This document shows positions 3,609-47,210 of a stretch of DNA of 61,798 nt, one piece after another. Position numbers and translations under genes: made by a program. This DNA comes from a virus (lineage: Duplodnaviria; Heunggongvirae; Uroviricota; Caudoviricetes): the IMG/VR virus record IMGVR_UViG_3300033233_000007, one strand, 5' to 3'. The notes beneath the pieces are model-generated. The model was given only the letters and a program-made list of their open reading frames with translations. It did no database searches and had not been told where the DNA came from. Numbering within the stretch: the stretch's first letter is position 1; each line of letters starts with the position of its first letter.

Positions 3609-3900
3609 AAAGGCCAAGACCACGGAAAAGCAGTTCAGCCCGCAGGAGATTTTCGCGGGCTACGTCGCCGTGCTGCACGCCAACACGGAGGCGCTCAGGA
3701 AACACGCGGAGGCCATGTCGAAGTTCGCGAGCGTGCTCGTCGACGTCAAAGACAGCGCCGATGCCGTGCACGACATCATTCTCGAGTACATGAACGAGTT
3801 CGGCGCCGAAGAGGGTGAGGAAGAAGAGGAGCCCGAGGACCCTGGCAAGCCCGATAAGCCGGAGCCCGAGGGCAACGGGCACGACGCGACGAAAACGTAG
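3601..3900 (+). CDS. Small acidic hypothetical protein
   Basis: GTG start overlapping upstream stop. Confidence 0.65.
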   Translation: MSEKAKTTEKQFSPQEIFAGYVAVLHANTEALRKHAEAMSKFASVLVDVKDSADAVHDIILEYMNEFGAEEGEEEEEPEDPGKPDKPEPEGNGHDATKT

Positions 3901-4241
3901 TGGGCAACCTGCGTAACGACGCCGAGGAGGTCATCCTCGACCGCTTCAAGTCGGCGAAGGGCCTCGTTGTTGCCGAGATCGTCCGCGTGATGCGGAAGAA
4001 GAAGATGTCGAATGCCGAACTCGCGAGGCGTCTCGGCGTCAGCGCCCAGTACGTCGGCCAGGTGCTCAAGCGAAAACGCAACGTGACGATCGAGACGCTG
4101 GAGGAGATCGCGCACCATCTCGGCATGGCGTGGTGCTGGACGATGGTAAATATCGATGTTTACCCCGCGGTCGCGAGTTATTTGAAGCTTGTGCAGAAAA
4201 ATTTTCAGGAAGGTGTTGACACGAGGCCGCTGGCCTCCTAA
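3900..4241 (+). CDS. XRE/Cro-C1 HTH transcriptional regulator
   Basis: MSNAELARRLGVSAQYVGQVLKRKRNVTIETLEEIA HTH_3 pattern. Confidence 0.85.
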   Translation: MGNLRNDAEEVILDRFKSAKGLVVAEIVRVMRKKKMSNAELARRLGVSAQYVGQVLKRKRNVTIETLEEIAHHLGMAWCWTMVNIDVYPAVASYLKLVQKNFQEGVDTRPLAS

Positions 4242-40994: not shown

Positions 40995-41060
40995 AAGCCA
41001 TGAGGCGGAAGAAGCCCGATGAACAATAGCGAGCCGGGACATCAGAGCAACCCGTAACCG

Positions 41061-41270
41061 ATGAGCGTCCAAAAGCGCGACTGGAAAAACTTGCCCACGC
41101 CGTCGTTGGCGCGCGTCGGCGCCATCCGCCGGCACGGCCACCAGTGGAGCCGCTGGTTCGCCGACGACGGCGCGTGGTCGCGGTACTGTACGACGCCGTC
41201 ATGCTTCAAGGGCGAAACGCGCCAAACGGTCTCGAAAGCGGTGCTGTGCAGGATGAAAAATCCGTTGTAA
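41061..41270 (+). CDS. Small basic hypothetical protein
   Basis: ORF; stop abuts array B. Confidence 0.5.
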   Translation: MSVQKRDWKNLPTPSLARVGAIRRHGHQWSRWFADDGAWSRYCTTPSCFKGETRQTVSKAVLCRMKNPL

Positions 41271-41385
41271 AAAGCCGACGAAGCGGAGAAAACCGTTACC
41301 AACGAGCGAGCCGCGGTCCGCCAGAAAACCACACGTACAGAGCGAGCCGACCCGCCGCAGAAAACCGAACGTCCCCAGCGCATCT
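41269..41385 (+). ncRNA. TIGR-like guide array B (3 units, + strand)
   Basis: AGCGAGCCG / AGAAAACCG 9-nt repeats alternating with 9-nt spacers, 36-nt period. Confidence 0.85.
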
Positions 41386-41422
41386 ATTTGCACGCGGCCG
41401 AGGCATGAGCTAAAATGCCGCC

Positions 41423-41827
41423 ATGGCCGCCCTCGACGGCGTTCAGGATTACCTGAAGGTCTTCTGCGACGTCCGCCGCGTCGTCGCCGCAAAGTTCCCC
41501 GAGCTTGAGAAGGTCCGCATGGCCATCTGCCCCGAGATCGCGCGACGCCGAAAAGCCCATCGCGACCCCCTCGAGCGAAAGCGCAGCTTCGGACATACGG
41601 GCCACGTCGACGCCACGGTCTGCGTGCACCCCAAGATTTTCAAGCTCGACCTCCCGTTCATGATCGGCCTGACGTTCCACGAGTTCGGGCACCTCATTGC
41701 CGTGCCACGGGGCCTGACGGGCCAGTCCGATGCCGACGGCGTGATCGGCCAGTATTTCGACGTCCCCATCTTCTACGACGGCCGTCTCGACCTCGAGTGG
41801 ACGCCCGCGGAGTACCTTTATGGATGA
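41423..41827 (+). CDS. HExxH zincin-like protein
   Basis: TFHEFGHL. Confidence 0.6.
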   Translation: MAALDGVQDYLKVFCDVRRVVAAKFPELEKVRMAICPEIARRRKAHRDPLERKRSFGHTGHVDATVCVHPKIFKLDLPFMIGLTFHEFGHLIAVPRGLTGQSDADGVIGQYFDVPIFYDGRLDLEWTPAEYLYG

Positions 41828-42137
41828 TGTCCTCAAGAACTCCGCCAACGTCATCCTGCGTAGCTTGGCGCACAAGGCCGTAGACGTCCTCGGTGACTGG
41901 TTCAAGGACCGCAAGCTCGGTCGCGTGGGCGCCGAGCCCATCGAAATCCCACGGAGCTACCTGCCGGCGCTGCAGAAGAAGGCCGAGAACATGGTTGAAG
42001 GTGACGAACCAGCCAAGTACATCGTCGTCGTGGAGGTCGCGACACGCAAAGTCGTTGGCTTCTGGCGCGTGCCCGCGGGCTCCGACATCGTGCCTAAGAA
42101 GGGGTACATCTACATCCCGATTTTGTTTCAGGAATGA
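41820..42137 (+). CDS. Hypothetical protein
   Basis: Last + strand ORF. Confidence 0.6.
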   Translation: MDDVLKNSANVILRSLAHKAVDVLGDWFKDRKLGRVGAEPIEIPRSYLPALQKKAENMVEGDEPAKYIVVVEVATRKVVGFWRVPAGSDIVPKKGYIYIPILFQE

Positions 42138-42153
42138 CGGGGCTGTTCGTAGT

Positions 42154-42536
42154 CGGTTTTCTCCGCTTCTTCGGCTCACTTGACGCAGACGGCTTCCTAT
42201 GTAAGATCGGCTCGCTTCAGTGCTACGGGCTTCTAATGTCCGGCGGCTCGCTATCTGTAGCCGGTTTTCTTCGTGCAGACGGCTCGCTACGTGCTACGGG
42301 CTTCTCCGTTTTGCGGCTCGCTAGATCACTCCGGTTTTCTCATCTCCCACGGCTCGCTTTGGTTCCACGGTTTTCTAGCCAGCACCGGCTCGCCATGCTC
42401 ATACGGGTTTCTTCTCGACAGCGACTCGCTACGTGCTACGGGTTTCTGCGATTTGCGGCTCGCTAGATTCTTACGGGTTTCTCTCTTCCTACGGCTCGCT
42501 TCGTACGGACGGTTTCCTAAGTTCAATCGGCTACGC
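42154..42536 (-). ncRNA. TIGR-like guide array A (22 repeats, about 11 units)
   Basis: cggttttct/cggctcgct alternate with 9-nt (four 8-nt) spacers; lengths sum to 383 nt. Confidence 0.92.
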
Positions 42537-42872
42537 CGCACCCTCCTCTCCCCTCACGACGAACTGTGCGTTGACCTGCGACGGATGGACCCCATGCGCC
42601 TGCGCGTAGATGTTGAGAAGCGCGTGTTGGACGATTTCGTTGTACTCCGCGGCCGGCAGGTCGGGCTTGACGACGTCGTGGAGGTACGTACCCAGAACTC
42701 CGACCAGAGACCCCATGACGGCGAGGGACGAGTCGGGCGATTCGACGCCGAAGATGGCCCTGATGTGCGCGCGGCGCCCGAACTCCATTTCGCTGATCGC
42801 GCGGCGAAAGCTTTCAAGGTCCTTGGCCACGAGAATCATCTGGCCCTGCGTGGGTCTTGGGCGGTCGGTCAT
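42531..42872 (-). CDS. Hypothetical protein
   Basis: AAGGAG RBS; stop overlaps first repeat of array A. Confidence 0.65.
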   Translation of the reverse strand: MTDRPRPTQGQMILVAKDLESFRRAISEMEFGRRAHIRAIFGVESPDSSLAVMGSLVGVLGTYLHDVVKPDLPAAEYNEIVQHALLNIYAQAHGVHPSQVNAQFVVRGEEGAA

Positions 42873-42898
42873 GACGAGACGCTCCTTAAACTTGTGAC

Positions 42899-43701
42899 CT
42901 AAAGATAGTCCCGCAGGCCAATGTAGTCCGAAAAGTCTTCTCGCCACTGTCCGAGGCTGTCCATTTTAGCCTTCAGCGACCTGGCGGCATTTTGCGCGAC
43001 GGCAAAAGAGTCCTTCGACGCCGACGTCGCCGCCCGCTTGGCCTTCCCACCGATATGAGACGCCTTGTTCAGTACGGACAGGTTTCGTTCGTGCGCTTCG
43101 CGGAGGCGTGTAAAGAGGAAAACAAGTTCCGACACTTCAGGTTCTCGGGGATTTTTGCCGTACCACGTTCTGAACGCATCGGCGACGGTTCTTCGAAGGT
43201 CTCGAGCGGCCGAGACGTACACCCTGGCGGCGATATCGACGACTTTCGGATAACCCGATTTCAAAGCAGACAGAAAGATGTCTCGCGCGACGTCCATCCT
43301 GTCGATCCACAGGACGATGTCCTGCGCCGTAGACGAATACTTTTTCAAATATCCATTCCCAAAATGTCGGACGCATCGGCCATGGAACTCGGCAGCGATG
43401 CCTGGCTCAAGAGCCTGCGCATGCGCAGGACGAGATTCGCTATGTTCAGCTTGTGCATAATCTGGAGCGTGAAGATCGCTTCGTCGCCCGTAACTTTCGT
43501 GAGGTCCACAGGCGCGTCGGGTGGAAGCTTCCTGTACATGCGGATGGCCGCGGACACGTCCTTTTCGACCATGCTCTCGATAATCAGCGCGGCTTCGGGT
43601 TCCGAAACCTGCACGAAGTCCAGGGTCACGCCCTGTTCCGGCAGACCCTGACGAACGCTCACTCTTCGGCCTACGGCGACTTTGATGCCTACGGGGATCA
43701 T
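42899..43701 (-). pseudogene. Helical hypothetical protein apparently split by a 1-nt frameshift near 43420
   Basis: Adding one G in CTGCGCATG joins MIPVGIK.. to ..ALEPGIAAEFHG; could be two genes or an assembly error. Confidence 0.45.
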
Positions 43702-43716
43702 GACGACTCCACAAAA

Positions 43717-44379
43717 TCAGGCCACATCGATAACGTACAGGTTGCCGGTCCACTCGGCATCGTCGATGAAGATGACGTCGAACTGCGGGAAATCCACGAT
43801 GTACCGAAACTCCGGATTTTCAAATCCGTAGGCCATGCCGACGGCCATCGTATGCAACCGTTCGCGCAGGTCGGCGACGATCAGGCTCTTGAGGTTGTCG
43901 TCGTCGGGATCGTAAGCGAAGACGACGTCGATCGGCGGGTTCACGGCGATGATGAAGTCCGTCGCGTACGGGATGAAAGAGTACGGCATCGCCGTGTTCA
44001 GAACGACTTCAATGCCGGTGGAGACGTCGTAATGAGCGCGCCCCCCGAACTGCGCTTGAAGGCTCTTCGATCTGAACATAACGCCGAAGCCGCGGCGCTC
44101 GCGCTCGACTTTGAAAGCGATTTTGTCGAGTCCGCTCTCCACCTTCTGGCGAATCTCCGAAAGGGTCGTTTTTCGCAGGGTGGCGAGTCTCGGCGTCTTC
44201 CCAAGTGTGAATCCGTCGTAAGTCAGTCTGCGGAAGAACTCGGTCGTCGTGCTTATAATGAACGACCAATTCCGCCGGCGGCCCTGCACGGCGGCGGTGA
44301 ACCAGTCGCCGGCGACGAGGACGTCCGAGGGGTCCTTCTGATCTGCGGCGGAAATGTGTTGCCACCTTACTTGCGACAT
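43717..44379 (-). CDS. Hypothetical protein
   Basis: ORF trimmed to MSQVRW. Confidence 0.65.
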   Translation of the reverse strand: MSQVRWQHISAADQKDPSDVLVAGDWFTAAVQGRRRNWSFIISTTTEFFRRLTYDGFTLGKTPRLATLRKTTLSEIRQKVESGLDKIAFKVERERRGFGVMFRSKSLQAQFGGRAHYDVSTGIEVVLNTAMPYSFIPYATDFIIAVNPPIDVVFAYDPDDDNLKSLIVADLRERLHTMAVGMAYGFENPEFRYIVDFPQFDVIFIDDAEWTGNLYVIDVA

Positions 44380-44612
44380 TTCTGCTGCTCCGAAACGAAC
44401 TTCTTGATGATCTCGGCCTTGAGGTCGATGCGCTCCTTTGCTTTCTTGCGCAGGACTTCGATGACACCGAGGAACTGCTCCCCGTTTTTGGCCAGAGTCT
44501 CGAGGTCCTTCATATCGTCGGTGATGCTCAGGCCAAGTTCGCGGGCGACGCGGATGTAGTCGGCGAACGCCTCGGGGAGCCCCTTGCGCCTGCATTGCGT
44601 GTTCGTTCCCAT
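44367..44612 (-). CDS. Hypothetical protein
   Basis: ORF. Confidence 0.6.
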   Translation of the reverse strand: MGTNTQCRRKGLPEAFADYIRVARELGLSITDDMKDLETLAKNGEQFLGVIEVLRKKAKERIDLKAEIIKKFVSEQQKCRK

Positions 44613-44625
44613 GCTATATCATTTC

Positions 44626-45093
44626 CTAAACGGTGATGTTCGCGATTTTCCGAAACTCCTCTTCAAGATCGTCTGTCCAGAACTCCGGCCAGTTACGTTT
44701 GATCGCGTCCCGCGTAGTGCGCGCATGAAGGCCAAGAGTACGAATTAACTTTCTCGCCGACGCTAAAAGGACTCTGTGGTCGTCGACGTCAAAGCCGGGA
44801 CGATCCCGCAAGAGCAAATCTATCGCAATGCCTTCTATGGCCACGGCCAGCCGGAGTTCGTCGATCATCTCAGCCGGCGTCCACGGTATTGGAGGAAGTC
44901 GTGACGGGTTCGACCTCAAGCCGATTCTGTCAAGAAGATCGGACGTATCCTCGATCACTTCAACAAGAGCCGACACGGCTTCGTGCAGAGAGTCGGGCTG
45001 ATCGAACCTGTCGGCCATGAGAATCGTGCCTCGAAGAGAACGCGCACTTCGGTAATATCCGTCGAGTGCAGCGAGAGCAACTTCTGGATTCAT
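44626..45093 (-). CDS. Hypothetical protein
   Basis: GGAGG RBS, MNPEVAL start. Confidence 0.65.
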   Translation of the reverse strand: MNPEVALAALDGYYRSARSLRGTILMADRFDQPDSLHEAVSALVEVIEDTSDLLDRIGLRSNPSRLPPIPWTPAEMIDELRLAVAIEGIAIDLLLRDRPGFDVDDHRVLLASARKLIRTLGLHARTTRDAIKRNWPEFWTDDLEEEFRKIANITV

Positions 45094-45320
45094 GCTCTCC
45101 TCCGGCTCCACGGCTCGCGGATGCGCCAGCGAATGCGCAATTCCAGAGGTTCGTCCATGATAAGTCCACGCATTCCAGTTGGGAAAATCCCGATCTCGAC
45201 CCACGTGCGCGGGTAGCCCGTTTCCCTGGCCACGTGCCCGCGGAAGTCCTCGATCGCGCGATCGGGATGGATCGGTTCGGCGAGGATTTTCGCGTTCATC
45301 CAGTTTGTGACGGCGGCCAT
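45090..45320 (-). CDS. Hypothetical protein
   Basis: Coupled ORF. Confidence 0.6.
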   Translation of the reverse strand: MAAVTNWMNAKILAEPIHPDRAIEDFRGHVARETGYPRTWVEIGIFPTGMRGLIMDEPLELRIRWRIREPWSRRRA

Positions 45321-45838
45321 CAGCCGATCCTCCGTATAAGATATTTGGCCGGCACTGTCGGTCCACCGCTAACGCGACGCAAAAGGTTGATCTTCCACAG
45401 GTAGGCGTCTCGAGCCGCCTCGAGAAGCTCTTCGTCACCGGCCAGCAACGGGGGTCTTTGCACGCCGTCGCCTTCTGCGATTCCTCGGAGCCGCATCAGA
45501 AGCGTCGGATAGTCCTCGTCGGGATCGCCACTGTAGCCGTATTGCGGGTGTGTTCCGGCCTCGACAAATTGCGCCATCTCTTTGGCGAACTCGTCTTCGA
45601 TCGTCGGCGTCCACAACCCGTAGGTCTCCTCCTCGCCCTCCTCCTCGCCCTCCTCGAGTTCAGCGTAAGCGGCCTCGATCCGATCGACCAGTTCTTCGGC
45701 TGCTTCTTCCAAGTCAAGAAGCCTTCCGTTGTGGACGTCGCATTCGTACATACGGTCGATTTCGGCCGCGAAGCGGTTGTAGCGCCGGATCATGAAGTCG
45801 ATGCGATCTTGCGCTGTTCGATTCGCCTGGAACGTCAT
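45320..45838 (-). CDS. Acidic hypothetical protein
   Basis: Coupled ORF. Confidence 0.65.
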   Translation of the reverse strand: MTFQANRTAQDRIDFMIRRYNRFAAEIDRMYECDVHNGRLLDLEEAAEELVDRIEAAYAELEEGEEEGEEETYGLWTPTIEDEFAKEMAQFVEAGTHPQYGYSGDPDEDYPTLLMRLRGIAEGDGVQRPPLLAGDEELLEAARDAYLWKINLLRRVSGGPTVPAKYLIRRIG

Positions 45839-46032
45839 GACTTTTTGCGCATCCCTTCGTTCAAGCGCCTGAGCGCCTCATCCATCGCGGCAAGCGGTCC
45901 TGCGGATAACATGGCCTTCGCCTCCTCTTCCGTCAGGTCCCGCGACACTTTCTTAATGTGGCGCTCGGGCTTGCCGTCGGAGCCGATCGTGATACGCTCT
46001 TCGTAACTCTCGTGTCGTCCGAAGATTTTCAC
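45835..46032 (-). CDS. Hypothetical protein
   Basis: Coupled ORF. Confidence 0.6.
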   Translation of the reverse strand: MKIFGRHESYEERITIGSDGKPERHIKKVSRDLTEEEAKAMLSAGPLAAMDEALRRLNEGMRKKS

Positions 46033-46400
46033 TACTTCACCTCCGTCAACCCTAGCTTACGCGTTTTGGCGATCTCGATCAAGCGATCAGCGATGAGATC
46101 AGACCAACCGCCGATGTCGTCGCTCACGAGCATCGCCGCCGTCGCGTCAAAAAGTTCGCCGGCCTTCACCTCATCCGTCAGCGGCCCGCCAAAGCGCAGG
46201 TAGTGCGTGGGGAAGTGCGCCACACCGAGCCGGATCATGAACGCCGACGGCAGGTCCCCTGTCCGCGTACCGTAAAGGTCCAGAACGACCTGCTGGCCGC
46301 TGGAGGATATGAAGACCTGCTGACGCACCAGCGAGCCGAATAGATTCGACATCGACGGTGTGTCGGCATAAATCGCCGTCAAGAAGGCCATGCCTGCCAT
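46032..46400 (-). CDS. Hypothetical protein
   Basis: Coupled ORF. Confidence 0.6.
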   Translation of the reverse strand: MAGMAFLTAIYADTPSMSNLFGSLVRQQVFISSSGQQVVLDLYGTRTGDLPSAFMIRLGVAHFPTHYLRFGGPLTDEVKAGELFDATAAMLVSDDIGGWSDLIADRLIEIAKTRKLGLTEVK

Positions 46401-46789
46401 CCTTCCGGCCTTTCGTCATACTTTTGCGGAAGCGGAGCAGGTCCCGCGGACGGTTCTGCCGACCGCGGCGGCCGACGTCGGGGCCGGTGCGTCACAACTG
46501 CATCGGGGATCGGCGCGTCGGGAGACGGCGGCGGCTCTTCCTTTGGCTTTGGCCGCGGGGGCACGGGCCTCATCCACGGGGCCTCCTGCTCGATCCGCTG
46601 GACGACGCACGGTGCCGAGACGTAGACGATGTCGCTTTCCCTGACGGTCCACGGGTTGTATTCGTCCTGGGGCTTGCGCCAGACCCGCGTGAGCTTCCAT
46701 CCTTTACCCACCTCGAAATCGGCGACGTCCGAGTACCAGATGTTGGCCGCGCCGCTGGAGTAGACGATGGTCGTGATGTAGTAACTCAA
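46379..46789 (-). CDS. Hypothetical protein, Pro-rich tail
   Basis: TTG start overlapping upstream stop. Confidence 0.55.
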   Translation of the reverse strand: MSYYITTIVYSSGAANIWYSDVADFEVGKGWKLTRVWRKPQDEYNPWTVRESDIVYVSAPCVVQRIEQEAPWMRPVPPRPKPKEEPPPSPDAPIPDAVVTHRPRRRPPRSAEPSAGPAPLPQKYDERPEGWQAWPS

Positions 46790-46995
46790 GGCGTCGGCGC
46801 TCCCTGGGTCTTGTAGTCCGGGCCTTCTTCCGCGCGGGCGCCGCGGTACCACCACCCTTTGAAGAGTTCCCAGCACGCCTGACAAACGTAGTGCACGTCG
46901 TCGCTGAACTTGACGTACTGGTGCGTGGGAATGTACTCCTCGCACCGGCATCGACCGCACTTCACGGAGGGCTCCTCATAGATCACGGCTCGCAA
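46786..46995 (-). CDS. Small Zn-finger protein
   Basis: CGRC..CQAC; TTG start lies within last repeat of array C. Confidence 0.6.
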   Translation of the reverse strand: MRAVIYEEPSVKCGRCRCEEYIPTHQYVKFSDDVHYVCQACWELFKGWWYRGARAEEGPDYKTQGAPTP

Positions 46996-47210
46996 AGTAC
47001 GCCAGTTTTTCTTGATCCACTTGACTCGCTGACGGACATCGGTTTCCTCAGTACGGATGGCTCGCTGTCAATGGACGGTTTTCCCACCTGCAACGGCTCG
47101 CTCTCGCTTGTCGGTTTTCTTGCATCGGACGGCTCGCTGTTTCGCAACGGTTTTCTTATGACGGGCGGCTCGCTGATCCATGACGGTTTGCTCCCGCTTC
47201 CCGGCTACTT
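46986..47210 (-). ncRNA. TIGR-like guide array C (6 units) directly downstream of the Tas-like gene
   Basis: Same repeats; first repeat overlaps the Tas-like stop codon. Confidence 0.92.

Follow-up and report, generated by a model that had tools for sequence, protein, structure and literature searches.

Eight small dual-repeat TIGR arrays and a putative nuclease-free TasA-type protein in a phage-like contig from sediment

Background

Dual-repeat TIGR-TasA systems such as FpTIGR from Flavonifractor plautii (Faure et al. 2025, PMC12045711) are phage-carried. Their arrays have a period of 36 nt, with 9-nt spacers between two alternating 9-nt repeats, truncated edge repeats at the array ends and an A-rich loop repeat, and their Tas protein has a Nop domain but lacks a nuclease. 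According to the published rules, each unit is composed of edge, spacer A, loop and spacer B, arrays begin and end with truncated edge repeats, edge and loop share their end motifs through covariation, and the 36-nt tigRNAs span from mid-edge to mid-edge (PMC12045711). In the solved TasR complexes the loop is A-rich, the Tas dimer is two-fold symmetric and each spacer bridges the two protomers; cleavage was reported to leave 8-nt 3' overhangs, with the cuts set by the fifth spacer base (PMC12045711).

Three further systems are relevant for comparison. SpTIGR-TasH from Salicola phage CGphi29 (PDB 9w03, 9w04 and 21kl; PMC13421893) also has a dual-repeat array, in which all the spacers are naturally 8 nt long (8+8, a guide of 16 nt), and its TasH protein carries an HNH nuclease and cleaves DNA. 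TasA has been described as an RNA-guided repressor, and the repressors of this set, MbTasA and nuclease-dead TasR, come mostly from stem-loop array systems of CPR bacteria (bioRxiv 10.64898/2026.09.09.750476). Finally, IS110/IS621 elements share a homologous RNA-binding domain and the logic of a guide with two half-sites. Two questions are open in the literature: the natural targets of TIGR guides, and the way in which arrays gain spacers.

Dual-repeat arrays in the window

The stretch of 61,798 nt analysed here (hereafter, the window) contains an array, array A, that was delimited by direct reading and a scripted parse (Table 1). On the minus strand, 9-nt repeats alternate with 9-nt spacers between them and a period of 36, in the order edge AGCGAGCCG, spacer A, AGAAAACCG-type loop, spacer B. 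The array starts with a 5'-degenerate edge, GCGTAGCCG, which contains the TAG stop of the upstream ORF, and it finishes at the 3' end with a loop, 9 nt and AGC. The edge-9 nt-loop pattern occurs 23 times in the window (0.05 expected from shuffles), and the locus has the two distinct alternating repeats (8-12 nt), the spacers of about 9 nt and the unit of about 36 nt that define dual-repeat arrays. Array A is thus a true array of the dual-repeat TIGR-TasA kind, which was described in 2025.

Repeats of the AGCGAGCCG/AGAAAACCG type form seven further arrays between positions 40996 and 50494, two on the plus and five on the minus strand, giving a total of eight arrays and 30 well-formed units, and no further array was found elsewhere in an 81-kb contig rebuilt from four overlapping loci. 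All the characters listed above for the FpTIGR-type systems are found here. However, the guides are distributed over eight small arrays (one with a single unit) spanning 9.5 kb, on both strands and fused to gene ends, one array mixes 36-nt and 34-nt units, and the Tas protein has a zinc-ribbon insert. Furthermore, the box ends shared by the two repeats of the window are AG...CCG, whereas they are UG...CCA in the TasR consensus and the FpTIGR-type systems.

Table 1. Coordinates of the TIGR arrays, selected units, the tas gene and the syntenic units of a related locus (window numbering unless stated)
Feature	Coordinates	Strand	Description
TIGR array A	42141..42536	-	11 units; direct read and scripted parse
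U3, 8+8 unit of array A	42427..42460	-	AGCCG-CAAATCGC-AGAAACCCG-TAGCACGT-AGCG; predicted 34-nt tigRNA
U7, 8+8 unit of array A	42285..42318	-	AGCCG-CAAAACGG-AGAAGCCCG-TAGCACGT-AGCG; predicted 34-nt tigRNA; copy of U3
TIGR array B	46986..47206	-	directly 3' of the tas stop codon; 5 well-formed units followed by decaying ones
tasA-like gene	47205..48221	-	338 aa, with a Nop domain, a zinc-ribbon insert and an N-terminal part made of helices; immediately precedes array B
Solo TIGR unit H	48819..48854	-	lies shortly 5' of the peptide deformylase start; AGCCG, 9 nt, loop, 9 nt, AGCG
TIGR array C	49018..49219	-	3 good units, preceded by degenerate ones
TIGR array D	49475..49550	-	2 units
TIGR array E	50387..50494	-	3 units
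TIGR array F	40996..41067	+	2 units; on the rightward transcription arm
TIGR array G	41273..41380	+	3 units; GC-rich spacers (68.5%); first unit homologous to the last unit of array A
Syntenic units in related locus L125	L125:2185-2328, 3646-3680, 3925-3960		correspond to window 50387-50494, 49018-49053, 48819-48854

A CRISPR array was ruled out, since there are two 9-nt repeats with 9-nt spacers instead of a single repeat of about 25-36 nt; scans with Pfam and PHROG revealed no cas family in the neighbouring genes. The period of 70 reported by TRF does not correspond to a true 70-nt tandem repeat, but to the similarity of two blocks within array A (U2-U3 and U6-U7) added to the identity of the repeats.

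Two features of spacer composition were recorded for the 30 units (window 40996-50494): T is the first base in 28 of the 54 nine-nt spacers, and spacer B starts with ATG in four units, with about one expected. This first position may be part of the box C contact and not of the guide. A variant organization was also observed in four related loci (L005:11069-11643, L007:11033-11560, L037:4550-5100 and L039:9061-9850), in which the edge AGCGAGCCG is combined with a 7-nt loop (AGAATCG, for example) and a period of 34 nt, and in which Tas is 39-43% identical to the protein of the window. Loop length is thus variable in this Tas clade, whereas the edge is constant.

The Tas protein

In phmmer searches the protein encoded by the tasA-like gene matched the TasR structure 9mty (E value 1.6e-19) and TasH (6.6e-7), and a profile of 20 homologues gave values of 3e-48 to 9mty and 5e-27 to TasH. 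The AlphaFold2 model (pLDDT 91.8) consists of helices only in residues 1-110, and Foldseek ranked TasR first, followed by TasH and then IS621. The Nop domain is interrupted by a zinc-ribbon beta-hairpin (CxxC...CPxC, residues ~155-190), the only insert in the protein, which most of the close homologues share and some (P0005, P0014 and P0020) lack. No RuvC or HNH domain was detected in the protein and no Pfam nuclease family was found; on the basis of sequence and model, we therefore assign it to the nuclease-free TasA type.

TasH shares the homologous Nop domain (profile value above) and a conserved His that aligns with H296, but differs in its HNH nuclease. In the processing dyad of SpTasH (Y289/H296), Tyr aligns with His298 and H296 with His310 of our protein; the His310 column is nearly invariant, and the Tyr column, occupied by His298 here, has Y, F or W in the relatives. 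Only the His (H310) of the dyad is therefore conserved, and self-processing is uncertain. An IS110-type bridge RNA element was ruled out, as Tas has no RuvC-like (DEDD) domain; its homology to IS110/IS621 is limited to the RNA-binding domain (Foldseek E ~1e-3), and the locus has guides in tandem arrays rather than a single two-loop bridge RNA and transposon ends.

Given the lack of a nuclease domain, the expected outcome of guide recognition would be DNA binding and transcriptional repression rather than cleavage, by analogy with MbTasA; nuclease-free RNA-guided DNA binding, as in MbTasA and nuclease-dead TasR, would be expected here too, although those systems are mostly of the stem-loop type and the phage system described here is known from sequence. 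No relative of the Tas protein was found in IMG/VR, and the best relatives from metagenomes and genomes are at most 43% identical. Three loci (L007-L009) share an identical Tas and their arrays are identical too, hence there is no variation among them.

Target geometry, spacer composition and foreign targets

A TasA dimer would be expected to bind the edge and loop repeats. Spacer A would pair with one DNA strand and, at the adjacent half-site, spacer B with the opposite one, so that one strand of the target would read as spacer A followed by the reverse complement of spacer B, A+rc(B). Our derivation indicates that only A+rc(B) on one strand yields 3' overhangs, whereas rc(B)+A yields 5' overhangs; A+rc(B) is therefore the geometry that fits the published 8-nt 3' overhangs. 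This was the joining geometry used in the initial annotation, and the three example targets given there (units 42181-42207, 42323-42349 and 42501-42527) had been computed correctly.

The initial annotation also counted by hand a spacer GC content of about 46% (86/185) in array A, below that of the surrounding DNA, and took this to suggest foreign targets. The recount agrees with the value (90/194, 46.4%, with about 60% for the window), but the interpretation is not borne out. Spacers have a lower GC content than their locus in 12 of the 13 related loci, with a mean difference of 8 points; low spacer GC is therefore a trait of the family and provides no specific hint of foreign targets here. 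Moreover, the values differ widely between the arrays of this phage, from 22% in the solo unit to 69% in array G (51% for the 30 units together).

An explanation in which the guides are directed at the chromosome of the host, or at competing mobile elements, of lower GC content falls, in our view, just short of an even chance. It could draw on the 46% GC of the array A spacers against 60% for the phage, subject to the family-wide trend and the range between arrays described above, and on a single long match. In three related phage contigs from IMG/VR with 43-52% GC (L117:5910-5927, L118:1299-1316 and L119:1787-1804), a tail-fibre-assembly gene (phrog_4628) carries, close to its beginning, a match of 18 out of 18 bases to the target ATCTTACATTGACGCAGA (unit 42181-42207). 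However, these sites represent one lineage and the match is indistinguishable from chance. As A+rc(B), the three example targets had 3, 2 and 0 matches in IMG/VR, the three for the first target being the lineage just mentioned; as rc(B)+A they had 2, 1 and 0, which corresponds to background in both geometries. The best named matches of the deformylase are from Acidobacteriota (about 50% identity), and in 301 genomes of this phylum one guide yielded 9 matches when up to 2 mismatches were allowed, and its reversed control yielded 7. For guides of 16-18 nt without a host genome, matches in large databases are thus at background, in agreement with the published caveat.

The 8+8 units

The initial annotation had stated that the 8-nt spacers of array A occur only as the pairs acgtgcta/gcgatttg (U3) and acgtgcta/ccgttttg (U7), with one half shared, and both the direct reading and the parse agree. 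There are only four 8-nt spacers in the array, they make up U3 and U7 (spacers and loop at 42431-42455 and 42289-42313, respectively), and TAGCACGT is common to both units. Each unit is centred on a AGAAAACCG-type repeat, with the box ends AG...CCG and the edge halves intact. The alternative parse, with 9-nt spacers and a 7-nt loop, was rejected for this reason, as the loop keeps both its AG and its CCG end.

The two units are not independent. Their spacers are identical at 14 of 16 bases, and their left neighbours, U2 and U6, are identical at 10 of 18, which places this pair among the top 5 of 378 unit pairs (top 1.3%). The 70-nt block U2-U3 was thus copied to U6-U7, and the 8+8 pairing therefore counts as one event, not two. 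A survey of odd-length units among 364 units from 35 related arrays revealed changes of spacer A and spacer B length, respectively, of (0,+1) in four units, (0,-1) in four, (+1,0) in three and (-1,0) in one, with (+2,0) and (0,-2) found once each. All these units change one spacer, and the symmetric (-1,-1) case occurs only in array A of the window. Related loci carry 9+8 units (L002 and L125) and also 9+10 units, so the two spacers need not strictly be of equal length. The claim of the initial annotation that the 8+8 pairs reveal the guide unit thus had the right direction, but it relied on a single duplicated case, and paired shortening is no rule in the 35 arrays.

This single origin, the changes of individual spacers in the 35 related arrays without any other symmetric unit, and the decay visible at one end of arrays B and C would all be compatible with the 8+8 units being decaying or neutral copies without function, in which the shared shortness is coincidental and uninformative about the guide unit. 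We nevertheless consider this explanation unlikely, though it deserves some weight, since both units retain intact AG...CCG box ends and edge halves, two independent 1-nt losses on adjacent spacers would have a chance of about 9% (an estimate from 21/231 pairs), and systems with natural 8+8 spacers, such as SpTIGR, are functional. SpTIGR differs in that 8 nt is the length of all its spacers; here the 8+8 arrangement is found in only 2 of 30 units. Under the origin we favour, one ancestral unit would have lost one base from each spacer and would then have been copied with its neighbour as the 70-nt block. Equal shortening of both spacers would keep the two-fold symmetry needed by the Tas dimer, a plausible reason for the survival of such units.

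Genomic setting and self-targeting

Many small genes and an integrase give the contig a phage-like character, and it originates from a sediment metagenome. The arrays share the strand of the genes around them and either follow a stop codon immediately or occupy a gap between genes, a position that makes their transcription as parts of operons most likely. No terminator-like site was found at any array end with a simple consensus scan, which can miss weak sites, whereas the published description includes a rho-independent terminator; the scan for promoters and terminators gave nothing above shuffles. The TAG stops of tas and of the ORF upstream of array A were observed to sit within a 5'-truncated edge, GTAGCCG (47202-47210 and 42528-42536), and in a related locus (L125:3955-3962) the deformylase ATG overlaps a 3'-truncated edge. 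The guides thus join directly onto coding genes, without a base to spare.

The embedding of the arrays in early-type operons, the activity of TasA as a repressor in reporter assays and the regulation of the viral life cycle proposed in the literature would suit guides that repress the promoters or gene starts of the phage itself. We searched for such sites with the 30 guides, first in the window and then across the 81-kb contig, masking the arrays and allowing gaps of 0-2. No site with 0-1 mismatches was found in the 81 kb with either joining geometry, which extends the spot checks of the initial annotation, where no full self-match had been seen; at least 44 kb more exists (125.8-kb contig). 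At 2-3 mismatches the counts in the 81-kb contig equalled those of the control geometries and shuffled pairs: at 3 mismatches, A+rc(B) gave 8 matches, the control orders 7 and 9, and the shuffled pairs 5.5 +/- 2.6. Self-targeting therefore seems to us quite improbable, and the natural targets would be placed outside the 81 kb searched. The matches predicted by the initial annotation showed no excess over control geometries or shuffled pairs in the contig itself, in IMG/VR or in Acidobacteriota. Its target prediction is neither supported in these spaces nor refuted, as they exclude the true host and the rest of the phage genome.

Edge, loop and the guide unit

The guide unit is much better defined by the array termini and the solo unit than by the 8+8 pairs. 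In seven of the eight arrays the 3' end consists of a loop, 9 nt and AGC(G), followed by unrelated sequence, and in at least five arrays, including the solo unit, the 5' end has only the 3' half of the edge (AGCCG). Solo unit H, which reads AGCCG, 9 nt, AGAAATCCG, 9 nt, AGCG, contains both half-edges, and its orthologue in L125 has the same form. The 19-unit array of another relative (L002, whose Tas is 43% identical) closes in a similar way, with loop, 9 nt and AGCG, and the loop repeat of the window is A-rich, as are TasR loops. From the array termini and the solo unit we therefore assign AGCGAGCCG as the edge repeat and AGAAAACCG as the loop repeat, as the initial annotation had proposed. 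The reverse assignment could be entertained because both repeats share their end motifs and the sequence alone is nearly symmetric, but it is extremely improbable: the terminal half-repeats are always of AGCGAGCCG and never of AGAAAACCG, the solo unit and its orthologue are centred on AGAAATCCG, the L002 array has the same ending, and the A-rich repeat is the loop in the solved TasR complexes.

With this assignment, the array ends and the published processing suggest that the precursor would be cut within the edge repeat, at AGCG|AGCCG, producing a predicted tigRNA with the structure AGCCG, spacer A, loop, spacer B, AGCG (5+9+9+9+4 = 36 nt); the two 8+8 units would yield tigRNAs of 34 nt.

Changes in spacer content

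Half-spacers that share 7-mers in the same orientation form six pairs in the window, with 0.79 expected and none of 500 shuffles reaching six, whereas the reverse-complement orientation has one pair, with 0.71 expected. Sharing restricted to the same orientation argues for common descent rather than for shared palindromic targets. Homology in both halves was also seen between the last unit of array A (42145-42171, minus strand; AAGAAGCGG/ACTACGAAC) and the first unit of array G (41278-41304, plus strand; ACGAAGCGG/TTACCAACG), where spacer B is displaced by one base. This suggests an inverted duplication between arrays.

The related locus L125 (deformylase 78% identical; nucleotide identity 72-83%) has mini-arrays in the same places, with conserved flanks and repeats and unrelated spacers: only 5 of 18 bases are identical in the solo unit and about 5 of 17 in the last unit of array C. 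Spacers thus turn over inside fixed scaffolds, and much faster than the scaffolds themselves. The initial annotation had proposed that half-spacers diversify independently after unit duplication. The duplication of U3/U7 with a later change in one half is in line with this proposal, but the rapid turnover indicates that point mutation after duplication, although it occurs, is not the whole story.

Units with one identical half-spacer and an unrelated partner were found in four related loci (L103:2235-2380, L125:2221-2328, L010:9446-9990 and, on the minus strand, L012 8347-8545). One of the L103 units combines spacer A of one unit with spacer B of the adjacent unit, as would be expected from recombination between loop repeats. 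With a strict count, half-sharing was observed in 4 of 7,960 comparisons within loci, as against 7 of 295,460 between loci. We tentatively suggest that guides may be renewed in place rather than added at one end like CRISPR spacers, with repeat recombination re-pairing the halves and with the 8+8 units marking a coupling of spacer lengths by the dimer, a proposal that remains doubtful.

Conclusions

Our main reading, to which we give a probability of roughly 0.8, is that the eight dual-repeat TIGR arrays serve one nuclease-free TasA-type protein, with guide processing, binding to A+rc(B) sites, repression and the block origin of the 8+8 units as proposed above. The solo unit and the ends of the eight arrays provide a clean definition of the guide unit for this clade from sequence information only, and this helps the automated annotation of scattered mini-arrays. 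The locus also offers material on the gain of spacers, namely the duplication of a two-unit block, a symmetric change in spacer length and a relative with the same scaffold. Renewal of guides in place, if true, would bear on how TIGR arrays obtain new spacers.
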